A stretch of 35,583 bases of DNA from a virus (taxonomy: Duplodnaviria; Heunggongvirae; Uroviricota; Caudoviricetes), in IMG/VR virus record IMGVR_UViG_2711768048_000005, positions 1-35,583 of that record. One strand, written 5' to 3'. Positions within the stretch are counted from its first letter, which is position 1. Each line of letters begins with the position of its first letter. Both the position numbers and the translations under genes were made by a program. Below, in pieces: positions 14,397 to 27,196 of this stretch. The notes under the pieces were generated by a model. It was not told the origin of the DNA, did not search any database, and saw only the letters and a list, made by a program, of their open reading frames with translations.

Positions 14397-14903
14397 TTAA
14401 GAGATTTTCAAAGTCTGCTTAGTACCAGTCTTCTTAATGTTATTGAGGAAAGCAGCCGGAGGATTGCTTAACCAATAGTAATGAAAACCATTTTGCATAC
14501 TGTTATAAGGAACAGTGACAGCAGCACCACCCAAATTAACGGTTATATTCCCTGCTCTACCGTTCTGGAGATATACAGCCATAGTAGGAGTACCACCATT
14601 GAATTGACCAACGATAACGCCTATCAGACGCCCTACGCCCACGTTTTCGGGGTTCTCCATAGATCCTTTACCGCGCATGTCAGTTACTGGATAGTTTGAA
14701 GCAGTTACACCCCAGTTATTACCCAATGAAGTAGACCATGCAGCAGTAGTTACAAACGTGTCCATACCACGACCACACATCGCGCTCATATTGGCAGGAC
14801 GACTAACCTTTAATGCGTTCATTGCTGCGCTCATCCACCGTTGACCAGTTACAGAAACAGCCGATGATCCGACCCAACCGGGCTTATTAACGACATTTGC
14901 CAT
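14397..14903 (-). CDS. virion structural protein (168 aa, Gly/Asn/Ser-rich)
   Basis: Track ORF between the putative tail tube gene and the chaperones. No motif recognised. Confidence 0.4.
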   Translation of the reverse strand: MANVVNKPGWVGSSAVSVTGQRWMSAAMNALKVSRPANMSAMCGRGMDTFVTTAAWSTSLGNNWGVTASNYPVTDMRGKGSMENPENVGVGRLIGVIVGQFNGGTPTMAVYLQNGRAGNITVNLGGAAVTVPYNSMQNGFHYYWLSNPPAAFLNNIKKTGTKQTLKIS

Positions 14904-14916
14904 TTTGATTACTCCA

Positions 14917-14946
14917 ATAAAAAAGCCCCACCATTAAGGCAGGGCT
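14917..14946 (-). terminator. rho-independent terminator after the tail tube gene and its extension
   Basis: Minus-sense agccctgccttaatggtggggct followed by tttttt. Near-identical to the terminator at 20788-20815. Confidence 0.6.
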
Positions 14947-14951
14947 TAAAA

Positions 14952-15077
14952 TTAATTCTTAGCCTTGCGGCCTCGTTTTGCTGTGGCTTTCGCCGTAACT
15001 TCTTCTACTTCTGGAATCACCACCGCTTCATGTTCCGGTAGTGGTTCCGGTTCTATTAAAGGAAGTTCTTCGTTAGT
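14952..15077 (-). other. in-frame 41-codon extension downstream of the TGA stop of 15078-15551 (candidate read-through C-terminal extension)
   Basis: Translation past TGA (15078-15080) gives TNEELPLIEPEPLPEHEAVVIPEVEEVTAKATAKRGRKAKN, ending at TAA 14952-14954. Shares the VTAKAT-plus-basic-tail ending and a 19-nt identity with 20821-20949. Confidence 0.45.
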
Positions 15078-15551
15078 TCATCCGGCAGTGAAGATTTCCT
15101 GTTTGATCGGCTTTCCGTCCACCGCGAAGGTAAACTCTTTAGTTACCACTTCTTCATCGCCACCGTTCATAGCAACTTTAGAAATAAAGCCGTTGAAAGC
15201 GGTGCGAATACCAGTCTGTTTTGCTGCATCAACATAGTATTCAATCTTGATCTGAATACGAGTACCGTCTTCGGCAGCTTTAATGAGCTTCTCGTGTACC
15301 GCATCGCCAGGAATGTAGTTAACGGTCAGAGTCAGATCAGGAACGTTCAGTTTACCTACCAGCTTACGGTTATACTGAGAAGAGAAGGATTTAACTTCTA
15401 CAGTGCCGCGCTCGATACCAGTTTCAGGAAAACCAGCACACTCTTTAATTTCTTCGTAGCTTTCGTGATTGAGAGCGGTGTTAGTGGTATCGGCGTGATA
15501 GAACAGACTTACCAGACCACCAGTAAAAATATCTTTAAATTGCTGAGACAT
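15078..15551 (-). CDS. putative major tail (tube) protein, 157 aa
   Basis: Small structural protein upstream of the chaperone/tape-measure block, followed by a strong terminator. Ends in TGA where nearly all other genes use TAA. Confidence 0.5.
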   Translation of the reverse strand: MSQQFKDIFTGGLVSLFYHADTTNTALNHESYEEIKECAGFPETGIERGTVEVKSFSSQYNRKLVGKLNVPDLTLTVNYIPGDAVHEKLIKAAEDGTRIQIKIEYYVDAAKQTGIRTAFNGFISKVAMNGGDEEVVTKEFTFAVDGKPIKQEIFTAG

Positions 15552-19218: not shown

Positions 19219-20052
19219 TTAGTATTCGCCGAAATCGATCCGGTCAGTCTTAGCCACTGCGCCAATTTCGCTAGGTGTCGGTTTCTCATTGGAGGAATAT
19301 ACCTTGATCCATTCAGAGCGACCGTTTTCCTGAATATTTCGGACGCGTAAACGTGGTGCGCCAGAAGTATTACAGGTTAATTGCCATGCGCCATGCTCAT
19401 CAGCTTGAAGGTGAATTAATGCTGTGTCGGTTGAATATGGATTACCGCTAGCAGTTCCCTTGTAAGTTACGAAACGGTTTCCGGCTAATGCCTCGCTATC
19501 AATCGGACCCGTGAATGGATTTACACCAGCACCCAAACCAAAATCACCCTGACGTAAGATCCGGCCTTCGGTAGCAATACCCCTTGCCAAAATCCCGCCA
19601 TCTGGTTCAAGTTTAAATTCCAGTGTTACAGCTTTGTTATCTGCGCCACGGGTTTTGTGACTAGTGACATAAGCGTCATAGATGACATAGTAACCAGTGT
19701 TAGCAGCACTATAGCCAGAGTTCACAACATAGAACATACGGAAGCGTAAAGGTGTTTTATCCTCTACCGCTTTCATCAACATTGCTTGATGTTCATCGTC
19801 AAGAACACGGTTTAATGTGAGTGTTGTCGGTTCCAGTCTACGATAACCAGCAAGTTTCCCCGTAGCGTCCTGATCGTACTCTTCCAGAGTTTCTATCTCT
19901 GTGGATTCGGTTAGCGTAGGGAATGCTGCGATGTTCTCCATAGAACTAAAGCTAGGATCGAAAAAGTCGACCTGATTGTCTATCTGGTTAGAGATCGACA
20001 CTTCAACATGTGATCCAGTGAAAATATCTAAGTTATCTTGTGTAATATTCAT
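19219..20052 (-). CDS. tail/fibre-associated structural protein (277 aa)
   Basis: Shares a KPTPxEIGA motif with the long fibre (KPTPSEIGAV here, KPTPGEIGAY in the fibre). Position between head-tail connector genes and the fibre. Confidence 0.45.
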   Translation of the reverse strand: MNITQDNLDIFTGSHVEVSISNQIDNQVDFFDPSFSSMENIAAFPTLTESTEIETLEEYDQDATGKLAGYRRLEPTTLTLNRVLDDEHQAMLMKAVEDKTPLRFRMFYVVNSGYSAANTGYYVIYDAYVTSHKTRGADNKAVTLEFKLEPDGGILARGIATEGRILRQGDFGLGAGVNPFTGPIDSEALAGNRFVTYKGTASGNPYSTDTALIHLQADEHGAWQLTCNTSGAPRLRVRNIQENGRSEWIKVYSSNEKPTPSEIGAVAKTDRIDFGEY

Positions 20053-20787: not shown

Positions 20788-20815
20788 CAAAAAAGCCCCA
20801 CCGTTAGGCAGGGCT
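20788..20815 (-). terminator. rho-independent terminator after the capsid gene and its extension
   Basis: Minus-sense agccctgcctaacggtggggc followed by tttttt. Near-identical to 14917-14946. Confidence 0.6.
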
Positions 20816-20820
20816 AATTA

Positions 20821-20949
20821 TTATTCTTTAGTTTTACGTTGTTTTTTAACTGTGGCTTTCGCCGTAACCGTCTGGGAATCTTCTTCCGGTTTAGGAATCA
20901 GATTTTCTTCCCCCAAATCGGGGGAAGGTTCAGAAGGTTCTACGCTAGT
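20821..20949 (-). other. in-frame 42-codon extension downstream of the TGA stop of the capsid gene (candidate read-through C-terminal extension)
   Basis: Translation past TGA (20950-20952) gives TSVEPSEPSPDLGEENLIPKPEEDSQTVTAKATVKKQRKTKE, ending at TAA 20821-20823. Same TGA-ACT-A context as the tail tube gene. Confidence 0.45.
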
Positions 20950-22956
20950 TCAGTCAGCGGAGATGTGAAGAACTTTCAGCGCTTCCGGCTGGGTTACAAC
21001 GTAATCCAGATCTACCCAGATACGCGGAACGATAGCAGACTGTGCGCGGTAGGTAGTGTCATCAATGTCAAGTTCCAGACCACCCCATTCACCGATGGTA
21101 ATAGCGTCGAACGATCCCAGAACGATGTGGTCTACCGGAATAACACCTGAAGTAACTACGTCGTAACCAGCCAGTTTACCGTTTTCGATGATATAACCGG
21201 AAACACCGTTATCTTTCAGGGTAGATTCCAGTTCAGCAGCAGTTGCACCGCTCATTGCAAACTTGATCGCCTGAGCAGGAACGCCAGCGTCGGTCAGTTT
21301 AGCAATTTCTTTCAGGAAGTCTTTATAAGAGAAAGCAGCTTTCTTCTCTACGCGACCAGCATCTACCAGTTGTTTAATCACACCAGCCGGACCACGAGCA
21401 TTTTCTTTATCGGACAGAATCAGTTGTTCCAGTTTGATGCGAACAGCCTGGTTAATGTGATCAGTGATCAGGGTAGCGATCCCAGGAACGGTCTTGAGGC
21501 TAGCCCTAGAAATTGGGTTGCCACCAGCAAAAGTTTTCGGAGCCATTTTCACGTTCGCAAATTCGGCTTTACCTTCCGGTGCAGCACCGTTTTCATCAAC
21601 GAAGCCGAAAGATTCAACGCTAGAAGCGGTCATTTTCGGAATAGCGGTCGGCGAAGTCAGACCAGACAGGACTTTCACACCCAGACGACCCAGAACGGAT
21701 TCCGGCATCAGCATCGCTACATAGGAATCATTCAGCAGTTTTTCGTCAGTTACAGCGGTCAGAGTAGCTTTGGTGTTACCATCAGCAGCAGCACGCATAG
21801 CAGCAGTAGGAACGAATACGGAGCCACCGCGAGCAGCACGACCACGCTGCATAGTTGCAGTAGCAGCCATTGCAGAAAACTCGGCTTCGTTAGCACCCAG
21901 AGCTTCACCATCTACCAGAGAGCGAATTACGTTGTTCAGGTCAAAAGTTTTTTCCATTTTAGAGTCCTTAATTTGTTGTTCGTTATTACGTTGAGCATTG
22001 GTAATGTTATTTAGTGCCTTAGTGCGGAATGCTTCCGGCGTCATGTCTTTAATTGCCAATGCGCGTTCTAATTCTTCGTCGTTAATATTTAGTTCGCGTG
22101 CAATTTCGCGAATTTCTAATTCGTCTTCTTCGGAACGTTCAGCCACTTCCTCGTTTTTTTCTTCTTCAACCGGAGCGGCTTCACGTTCTTCTTTTACTTC
22201 TTCTGTTTCCCGAACAGTTGAACTATCATCATCAACACTTTCAGGATGTTCAGCGTCTTTTCCGTCTTCGAGATTTTCATCTTCTTTATTCTCTTCAACT
22301 TGGCGCTCTTGAGTTTCTTCAACTTCCGATTCTTTATTTTCTTCTACCGGAGTTTCTTCAACCTGAGCGGATTCTTGTTCTTCTTTGATTTCTTCAATTT
22401 GTTCTTTAGTCATATCGCGTTTAGCCTCCAAATTAACTGTGATAGTATTTAGAGAGCGATTTAAACCGACCGTATCGTCTGCGGGAACGGTGACAAATGA
22501 GAGTTCATAGGGTGCCCACTTAGTAACAATCAATTGCCCTTTGGCGTAATCGATGTGATATTCTTTAATGTCATAGCCGACAGAAATTTTTTCCATCGTA
22601 CCTTCAATGACTTTATTACGAACATCATTAGCCAAAGTGCCATGTTTAGAGAATTTAACCAGAGCACGGCCTACGTTATCCGCATCGATTCGAGCGTCGC
22701 AGACTACACCTAAATGATTATCGAAATTATGATTGAACAGCAACGGAGCGTTATTATTCAGACGAGACAGATCAACCGCTTCCGGTGTATGTACCAGAAT
22801 TTCATCTAATACCACCATTTCTTGATTTTGCTCATCCCAGAATTGGCGCTGATAAGGCTGTTCACTGGAGAAAGCAATTTCAAATTCGTATTGATCATTA
22901 TGCCCTTCGTTAATAACTCCACCGTAACCGTTAAGATCGCGGCGAAATTTAAGCAT
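20950..22956 (-). CDS. prohead protease - acidic scaffold-like linker - HK97-fold major capsid protein fusion
   Basis: 668 aa. The N-terminal ~180 aa carry HK97-type prohead protease features (LLFNHNFDNHLGV, ELSFVTVPAD). The middle is an acidic E/K-rich low-complexity region. The C-terminal ~300 aa look like a major capsid protein. Ends in TGA. Confidence 0.8.
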   Translation of the reverse strand: MLKFRRDLNGYGGVINEGHNDQYEFEIAFSSEQPYQRQFWDEQNQEMVVLDEILVHTPEAVDLSRLNNNAPLLFNHNFDNHLGVVCDARIDADNVGRALVKFSKHGTLANDVRNKVIEGTMEKISVGYDIKEYHIDYAKGQLIVTKWAPYELSFVTVPADDTVGLNRSLNTITVNLEAKRDMTKEQIEEIKEEQESAQVEETPVEENKESEVEETQERQVEENKEDENLEDGKDAEHPESVDDDSSTVRETEEVKEEREAAPVEEEKNEEVAERSEEDELEIREIARELNINDEELERALAIKDMTPEAFRTKALNNITNAQRNNEQQIKDSKMEKTFDLNNVIRSLVDGEALGANEAEFSAMAATATMQRGRAARGGSVFVPTAAMRAAADGNTKATLTAVTDEKLLNDSYVAMLMPESVLGRLGVKVLSGLTSPTAIPKMTASSVESFGFVDENGAAPEGKAEFANVKMAPKTFAGGNPISRASLKTVPGIATLITDHINQAVRIKLEQLILSDKENARGPAGVIKQLVDAGRVEKKAAFSYKDFLKEIAKLTDAGVPAQAIKFAMSGATAAELESTLKDNGVSGYIIENGKLAGYDVVTSGVIPVDHIVLGSFDAITIGEWGGLELDIDDTTYRAQSAIVPRIWVDLDYVVTQPEALKVLHISAD

Positions 22957-27082: not shown

Positions 27083-27196
27083 ATGCTAATTAATCAGCAA
27101 GAAAGAGATGAATTAGAATTAGCCTTGTCTTGTCTTGTCTTGTCTTGTCTTGTCTTGTCTTGTCTTGTACCGATCATGAATATCGTTTGCCAGTAA
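27083..27196 (+). CDS. leader ORF: ATG with strong SD reading through (CTTGT)9 and stopping out of frame (current OFF state)
   Basis: SD AAGGGGGG then ATG 27083. The frame passes through the repeat and ends at TAA 27194-27196 (37 aa). It is in a different frame from the 196-codon ORF. Confidence 0.35.
   Translation: MLINQQERDELELALSCLVLSCLVLSCLVPIMNIVCQ
27124..27168. repeat. perfect pentanucleotide tandem repeat (CTTGT)9
   Basis: 45 nt of nine uninterrupted CTTGT units read directly from the sequence. Confidence 0.95.

Follow-up and report, generated by a model that had tools for sequence, protein, structure and literature searches.

A putative opal read-through cassette shared by the capsid and tail tube genes of an Escherichia coli prophage family

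Results

The cassette in the window

We analyzed a stretch of 35,583 nucleotides from a tailed virus (Caudoviricetes; IMG/VR record IMGVR_UViG_2711768048_000005), which we refer to in its entirety as the window. The minus strand carries a 668-codon gene, from an ATG at 22956..22954 to a TGA at 20952..20950, in which a prohead protease, a scaffold-like linker and a major capsid protein are joined in a single polypeptide. Behind its TGA stop lies an open in-frame extension closed by TAA and a terminator, and a homologous cassette follows the lambda-type tail tube gene (Table 1). The element is a prophage of ~35 kb, present in 55 of 5,426 complete Escherichia coli genomes; lysogens include PK8568 (NZ_CP080126) and 14EC017 (NZ_CP024134). 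A previous sequence-only reading of the window, which had singled out the fusion gene and its extension, left the minus-strand location unmentioned.

That reading described a TGA followed by 42 open in-frame codons, together with a terminator common to the capsid and tail tube genes. The extension is present exactly as described (20949..20824), and a near-identical terminator stands behind the tube gene, after TGA ACT and 41 further codons. Read from its N-terminal end, the capsid extension consists of an acidic, proline-rich spacer (net charge -7), the motif VTAKAT and a polybasic tip (net charge +5), and the hairpin behind it has a G+C-rich stem of 9 bp followed by a run of T. The 19-mer GTTACGGCGAAAGCCACAG, which encodes VTAKAT, occurs in the window only in the two cassettes, and within 14 kb of that strand no other site ranks above the two cassette hairpins as a terminator-like structure. 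The tips read KKQRKTKE in the capsid extension and KRGRKAKN in the tube extension; neither contains GRP, so neither qualifies as an AT-hook, and a KK(A/V)GRPPKAK motif is found in some relatives only. With tryptophan placed at the UGA, the predicted read-through junctions are VLHISAD-W-TSVEPSEPSPDLGEENLIPK for the capsid protein and (K)QEIFTAG-W-TNEELPLIEPEPLPEHEAVVIPEVEEVTAK for the tube protein, with a predicted gain in mass of ~4.8 kDa for the extended subunits over a mature capsid protein of ~29 kDa and a tube protein of 17.4 kDa.

The choice of stop codon stands out against the rest of the genome, as TAA closes 28 of the 31 long open reading frames (ORFs) in the window and 31 of the 35 genes called by PGAP in one related prophage. 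The hexamer TGA ACT is identical to the coat/A1 read-through site in the Qbeta-group record NC_001890, where the annotation gives ~5% read-through. In E. coli K-12 reporters UGA is read through at 2-4%, with Trp-tRNA competing against release factor 2 (RF2) (PMC10570021), and RF2 binds UGAA weakly (Baggett et al., PMC5373646). There are no tRNA genes in the window, and therefore no phage suppressor tRNA. Global recoding of TGA is ruled out, since translation with the standard code leaves the long ORFs intact. Apart from the capsid and tube genes, a single long ORF in the window has a TGA stop (876..1358, minus strand); its translation is hydrophobic and of low complexity, it overlaps a plus-strand ORF at 1020..1439, and it is probably not a gene.

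Table 1. Coordinates of the capsid fusion gene, the tail tube gene and their 3′ cassettes in the window.
Feature	Position	Strand	Basis
Prohead protease / scaffold-like linker / major capsid protein fusion gene	20950..22956	-	ORF translation; PHROG 617 full-length, E 1e-87
Prohead serine protease domain, amino acids (aa) 40-162	22471..22839	-	Pfam PF04586 Peptidase_S78, E 2.6e-10; TIGR01543 and NF045541 also match
Acidic repetitive linker (aa 171-300) and helical scaffold-like stretch (aa 301-400)	21757..22446	-	Composition; imperfect repeats D1/D3
HK97-fold major capsid domain, aa 410-664	20965..21729	-	Pfam PF05065 Phage_capsid, E 1e-22; PDB 8GTA
Putative leaky stop UGA-A (TGA ACT) of the capsid gene	20949..20952	-	Sequence; family conservation; NC_001890 hexamer
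42-codon in-frame capsid extension, TSVEPSEPSPDLGEENLIPKPEEDSQTVTAKATVKKQRKTKE	20824..20949	-	Translation
Tandem TAA TAA closing the capsid extension	20818..20823	-	Sequence
Intrinsic terminator hairpin AGCCCUGCC-UAAC-GGUGGGGCU + U6	20789..20815	-	Folding; repeat family D4
19-nt core block GTTACGGCGAAAGCCACAG (VTAKAT)	20850..20868	-	Identical to the tube-cassette copy
Lambda-type tail tube gene, 157 codons, ending TGA ACT	15078..15551	-	Pfam PF16460/PF16461 (Phage_TTP_11/12); PHROG 158, E 9e-22
41-codon in-frame tube extension TNEELPLIEPEPLPEHEAVVIPEVEEVTAKATAKRGRKAKN, closed by TAA 14952..14954	14955..15077	-	Translation
Tube-cassette terminator AAGCCCUGCC-UUAAU-GGUGGGGCUU + U-run	14919..14947	-	Repeat family D4; folding
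Second copy of the 19-nt core block	14981..14999	-	Exact match

Frame conservation among relatives

We gathered 32 related prophage loci from IMG/VR. At every one of these the capsid gene runs into TGA-A (ACT or AAT) and an open in-frame stretch of 28, 42, 43, 44 or 45 codons, followed by TAA and a terminator. The cassette-bearing tube allele, with extensions of 36, 39 or 41 codons, is present in 15 related loci as well as in the window, and about half of the related prophages have a tube allele that is 60% identical and lacks the cassette (L003, L007, L008, L013, L014, L024, L026, L027, L029-L032 and L034). When the unique DNA variants were compared (18 capsid and 11 tube), frame 0 was open in all of them, each of the other frames was closed by one to seven stops, and no conserved internal start codon was found. 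All length variants of the cassette differ by whole codons, those on capsid genes having 28, 33, 42, 43, 44 or 45. The cassettes fall into four non-homologous types, all open in frame 0; the probability of this in shuffled sequence is 0.08-0.22 for each type, and the product is 2.6e-4. The four spacer types keep the pattern of charge, with an N-terminal part of -4 to -9 that includes two to five prolines and a C-terminal part of +5 to +6, and GRPP is retained across synonymous codon changes.

Some E. coli genomes, that of 39EVA among them, have a capsid allele, designated here as allele B, that is only 37-38% identical to that of the window. At locus L157 allele B ends in ..QKKVD TGA ACT with 42 in-frame codons behind it, and at L155 it ends in ..QKKGE TGA ACT with 33. 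An in-frame cassette thus stands behind TGA-A in 57 distinct contexts, 33 of them with capsid allele A, 3 with capsid allele B and 21 with the tube gene, and the base following TGA is A in 57 of 57. More than 120 clusters of the capsid fusion protein are all of 666-670 aa, which indicates that the stop was never swapped for a sense codon. In all 55 of the complete E. coli genomes PGAP ended the capsid gene at the TGA and annotated nothing in the extension.

The exact 19-mer is confined to this prophage family, and a scan with the degenerate motif VTAKAT(A/V)K returned mostly chance matches. A megablast search of the fusion gene against 50,697 phage records gave no match, and a profile search of genome contigs with the capsid alignment gave no relatives. 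When the capsid C-terminus was joined through W to the extension and used as a protein query, we obtained four truncated matches and no fused form. A major head protein of another family (PHROG 422; L150, 288-1130 on the reverse strand) ends directly fused to ..AKAEVTAKATAKK, with a terminator behind it; the presence of the VTAKATAKK motif on this unrelated capsid protein may be a coincidence.

In more distant relatives, with capsid proteins 40-43% identical (L105, L109, L113, L104, L106-L108, L111 and L001, the last being Escherichia phage DCP80), the capsid gene ends in TAA. Several of these have short, directly fused A/E/K tails such as ..GTPAEAKAAKQ, in others a K/A-rich tail lies in the -1 frame (NTGEQASPAKVKKPRALKVK; RKAKAKAKAKAETAE), and a small overlapping ORF of DCP80 ends in ..APVKKSKSASG. 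Since the DCP80-group relatives, with their TAA stops, carry such fused or -1-frame tails, a basic C-terminal tail may predate the read-through solution. The DCP80 record itself (PQ671644, 141 kb) is filed as Straboviridae/Gaprivervirus (T4-like), and its first 17 kb encode a lambda-type terminase, a portal and a protease-capsid fusion, nearly all annotated as hypothetical, so that the taxonomy or assembly of this record looks questionable.

The capsid fusion gene

The sequence-only reading had proposed a protease-like N-terminus, an acidic middle and a capsid-like C-terminus within one gene, and profile searches of the segments bear this out (Table 1). The N-terminal domain scores 41.1 bits against PF04586, for which the cut-off is 21 bits, and the match to TIGR01543 falls under that model's cut-off. 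His56, His76, Ser125 and Ser153 are invariant among relatives. In the middle segment (aa 171-300) Asp and Glu account for 41% of the residues and the net charge is -37. The NF045541 profile aligns to aa 22-345, and the capsid chain of roseophage R4C (PDB 8GTA, 268 aa) aligns to aa 410-661 with an E of 2.3e-23, its alignment beginning only at aa 410. The R4C shell is of the HK97 type, with T=7 and 415 copies of the protein. As far as sequence matches go, the folds of the protease and capsid segments are settled, with support from Pfam, PHROG, NCBIfam and PDB. A split of separate genes masked by a sequencing error, which had been raised as a possibility, does not hold up, as the same architecture recurs in each of the >120 clusters noted above, and a 668-aa protein identical to that of the window is already annotated in E. 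coli. According to Pfam, the neighboring genes encode a portal protein of lambda type, a terminase of gpA type and an FII-like protein.

The fusion was also presented as an unusual capsid-assembly arrangement, and this part of the proposal fails. NCBIfam NF045541 (scaf_prot_MCP2) carries the name 'prohead protease/major capsid protein fusion protein', the label of PHROG 4523 reads 'major head and protease protein', and PHROG 617 ('major head protein') matches the window protein from end to end. Using tblastn, we found the same fusion in phiHAP-1, RcCronus, FoX, ep3 and others, one of them labelled 'major capsid protein and protease', and it is annotated in many phages, including Murka. Like the window protein, the fusions of these families (phiHAP-1, RcCronus, FoX, ep3 and R4C) are single polypeptides in which an S78 protease comes first, an acidic linker second and an HK97-type capsid domain last. 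Against NF045541 itself the window protein reaches 127.6 bits, where the curated cut-off is 525 bits, and it therefore shares the architecture and not the exact family. Because this is a curated family type, annotated in many phages and with a solved relative (8GTA), the protease-scaffold-capsid fusion is real but ordinary, a known arrangement that adds nothing new. What sets the window apart from these known fusions is the TGA cassette, which all of the more distant relatives that we examined (L104-L117 and DCP80) lack.

We propose that the fusion product would act as a self-processing capsid precursor, in which the S78 protease and the acidic scaffold-like linker would co-assemble with the HK97-fold domain and then be cut away, leaving a shell protein of ~270 residues. 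The linker and scaffold-like stretch are presumably removed on maturation. It is the length of the solved R4C chain that points, by analogy, to cleavage of the precursor; since that chain has 268 aa and matches the C-terminal part, the mature capsid protein most likely corresponds to the C-terminal ~270 residues. Cleavage would be expected to fall around residues 385-400.

Other genes and repeats near the structural operon

Directly after the tube cassette and its terminator lies a gene for a 168-aa protein (14397..14903, minus strand) that matches the N-terminal domain of the T4 Gp38 adhesin (PF21721, E 1.8e-15). It sits between the tube and tail-chaperone genes, a region in which the gene content differs in relatives that carry the other tube allele. 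A 277-aa protein encoded at 19219..20052 (minus strand) is tube-like in its N-terminal half (PHROG 158, aa 10-154, E 6e-8) and has a C-terminal domain of ~120 aa. Its gene is just upstream of a 1176-aa tail-fibre gene and far from the real tube gene, and the PK8568 copy ends in TGA TTG. From these matches the protein may be a second tube-like paralogue, perhaps forming a fibre-bearing ring. An intergenic run of about ten CTTGT pentamers (27124-27173, repeat family D6) adjoins the terminase gene.

Discussion

Recurrence of an in-frame cassette behind UGA-A in three gene contexts leads us to consider it fairly probable that low-level opal read-through yields minor, C-terminally extended capsid and tube subunits; it is the conservation of frame among relatives that favors translation of the cassette. 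The cassette has a modular order, with a putative leaky opal stop UGA-A(C/A)U, an acidic Pro-rich spacer, the VTAKAT core, a Lys/Arg-rich tip that is AT-hook-like (GRP) in some variants, and UAA with an intrinsic terminator. Most ribosomes would stop at UGA-A and a small share would read through as far as the TAA that immediately precedes the terminator. The residue inserted would probably be Trp, from near-cognate tRNA-Trp in competition with RF2, and the products would be minor capsid and tube subunits longer by the ~4.8 kDa predicted above.

We take the C-termini of the HK97-fold capsid protein and the lambda-type tube protein to face outward. In T7 10B the C-terminus lies on the surface of the capsid and is used for display, and in lambda gpV it can be dispensed with and likewise serves for display (PMC11197292); the tube protein of the window ends where the tube domain of gpV ends (Pfam Phage_TTP_12). 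Because those C-termini face outward, flexible and positively tipped tails would be expected outside the head and tail in a few copies per particle, and by analogy with these proteins the extensions are probably displayed on the virion surface. Their composition suggests that the role is most likely weak electrostatic adhesion to polyanionic surfaces such as lipopolysaccharide, capsule, mucus or extracellular DNA. A broader proposal is that this coliphage family decorates head and tail tube with the same short polybasic tail through programmed opal read-through rather than frameshifting, and that signal, spacer, tip and terminator form a portable 3′ cassette. Recombination would move this cassette among structural genes that are unrelated and would also exchange its sub-modules. 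We regard this proposal as evenly poised.

Several observations weigh against translation of the cassette. In E. coli with wild-type RF2, no read-through product could be detected for either of two native UGA genes (PMC5373646), and for this reason read-through in the natural host may lie well below 2-4%. Thirteen relatives have the other tube allele, which ends in TAA with no cassette, so that the tube module is mosaic and the tube extension dispensable. A search with the 42-aa extension against 1.84 billion representative proteins gave 0 matches. The sole exception to the conserved frame is L154 (E. coli ETEC1703, NZ_CP122923, locus 2590-2620), where the cassette lies in the -1 frame; compared with L157 there is an A5 instead of an A6 run before the stop and the capsid frame runs onto a TAG, which is either a frameshift mutation or a homopolymer assembly error. 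The pooled ratio of non-synonymous to synonymous polymorphism (pN/pS) is 0.75 in the capsid extension and 0.27 in the gene body, and the value for the extension is no better than that of control frames. Finally, the VTAKAT core shows four non-synonymous and 0 synonymous variants in 58 contexts, so that this block is conserved as nucleotides. The core contains a GGC-GAAA-GCC mini-hairpin, and it may serve as a recombination anchor between shuffled spacer and tip modules or as a small RNA element. In the tube extension the pattern is weakly protein-like, with a pooled pN/pS of 0.41-0.44 against 0.11 in the gene body and control frames at 0.84 and 1.58. Together these pooled values suggest that the extension evolves like a weakly constrained, disordered linker.

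The alternative that survives best, and one that we consider unlikely although it is compatible with read-through, is that the cassette is an untranslated 3′ RNA module, made up of the terminator and the hairpins upstream of it, placed after the two most highly expressed late genes. Such a module would determine where transcripts end, how stable they are or whether transcription partly terminates, and the open frame would be a coding relic or a by-product of recombination. This would fit the cassette hairpins being the strongest terminator-like sites in the structural operon, and the folding of every spacer type, which is better than that of shuffled sequences (z -3.0 to -5.4). It would also accommodate a core that lacks synonymous variation and holds a mini-hairpin, the pN/pS of the capsid extension, an out-of-frame cassette tolerated in L154 and efficient termination at UGAA by wild-type RF2. 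What an RNA module gives no reason for is that frame 0 is open and the others closed in 29 unique variants, that lengths change only by whole codons, or that the rare TGA-A is kept exactly at the junction in each of three gene contexts, one of them a capsid allele with just 37% identity. Nor does it give a reason for the acidic-then-basic pattern across non-homologous spacers or for the retention of GRPP through synonymous changes. We rejected a read-through stimulator in the RNA at constant distance from the stop, as the hairpin starts 13, 25 or 32 nt after the UGA depending on the type of cassette and the hairpin sequences differ. A search of Rfam found no family at the gathering threshold and only noise at E < 1.

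The extension could be expressed in some other way, from an independent small gene inside the cassette or by frameshifting or hopping, and this we find very improbable. The Listeria phages that frameshift at the ends of capsid and tail genes (PMC5009743) offer a precedent, and in the DCP80 group K/A-rich tails lie in the -1 frame after TAA, with the small overlapping ORF of DCP80 as a further example. The cassettes, however, are in frame 0, so no shift is needed, and no slippery heptamer precedes the stop. A conserved start codon or Shine-Dalgarno sequence is likewise missing from the cassette, and a TTG at codon 12 is missing from the 28-codon variant. Decoding of the UGA as selenocysteine, guided by a downstream SECIS-like hairpin, seems more improbable still. 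The host is E. coli with the selenocysteine machinery, and a hairpin follows the UGA by 13-32 nt in each type of cassette, but these hairpins are non-homologous, with different distances and loops, they match no Rfam family, and capsid and tube biology gives no call for selenocysteine. A sequencing error or a recent nonsense mutation that truncates or splits a longer gene is barely credible and is refuted by the comparative data, as the same stop recurs at the same place in >120 protein clusters and 57 distinct DNA contexts from independent assemblies, and the one possible homopolymer error, in L154, breaks the frame rather than creating it.

If read-through does take place, this would be the first such module described for structural genes of Caudoviricetes, and it would amount to natural display at low copy number on two proteins of the virion. 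Read-through would join frameshifting as a route by which tailed phages obtain minor, surface-decorated forms of their major structural proteins, and its level would link the virion surface to the RF2 and tRNA-Trp physiology of the host. The cassette would also provide a ready-made, low-copy display site on head and tail. Because the extension is invisible to annotation pipelines, similar modules may have been overlooked elsewhere.

Capsid or tube proteins that bear a minor or optional addition at the C-terminus, located on the virion surface and dispensable for assembly, are known from T7/T3 10A/10B, Lactobacillus phage A2, SPP1 gp17.1*, frameshift-added immunoglobulin-like (Ig-like) domains and the Ig-like domain of lambda gpV. 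Such additions mostly arise by frameshift or direct fusion, and what is gained is usually a folded Ig/FN3 domain, whereas the extensions described here, at 28-45 residues and Pro/Glu-rich followed by Lys/Arg-rich, are not such domains. To our knowledge, none of these cases has an opal read-through cassette common to head and tail genes. In the literature we searched, we found no described case of read-through at the capsid or tube gene of a tailed double-stranded DNA phage.

The coat/A1 protein of Qbeta (NC_001890) resembles the present case in being from an E. coli phage with a leaky UGA and an identical TGA ACT, where a few percent of subunits carry a capsid-exposed C-terminal extension. Qbeta is, however, a single-stranded RNA levivirus whose extension is a folded unit of 196 residues and essential for infectivity, while the window represents a tailed double-stranded DNA prophage with a short tail predicted to be disordered and with the module duplicated on the tube gene. 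The closest functional parallel, by analogy, is provided by Listeria phages PSA, A118 and A500 (PMC5009743), in which the capsid (cps) and major tail (tsh) proteins are both given minor C-extended forms by recoding at the 3′ end, as proposed here. These phages use a +1 or -1 frameshift, for example at CCC_UGA or with a pseudoknot, to enter another frame. The extension in the window lies in frame 0 behind the UGA with no slippery site, and so is not of this type; it also differs in coming from one shared homologous cassette of 28-45 residues that has no folded domain. Recoding-derived C-terminal extension of phage structural proteins is itself a known phenomenon, within which the shared TGA cassette is new.

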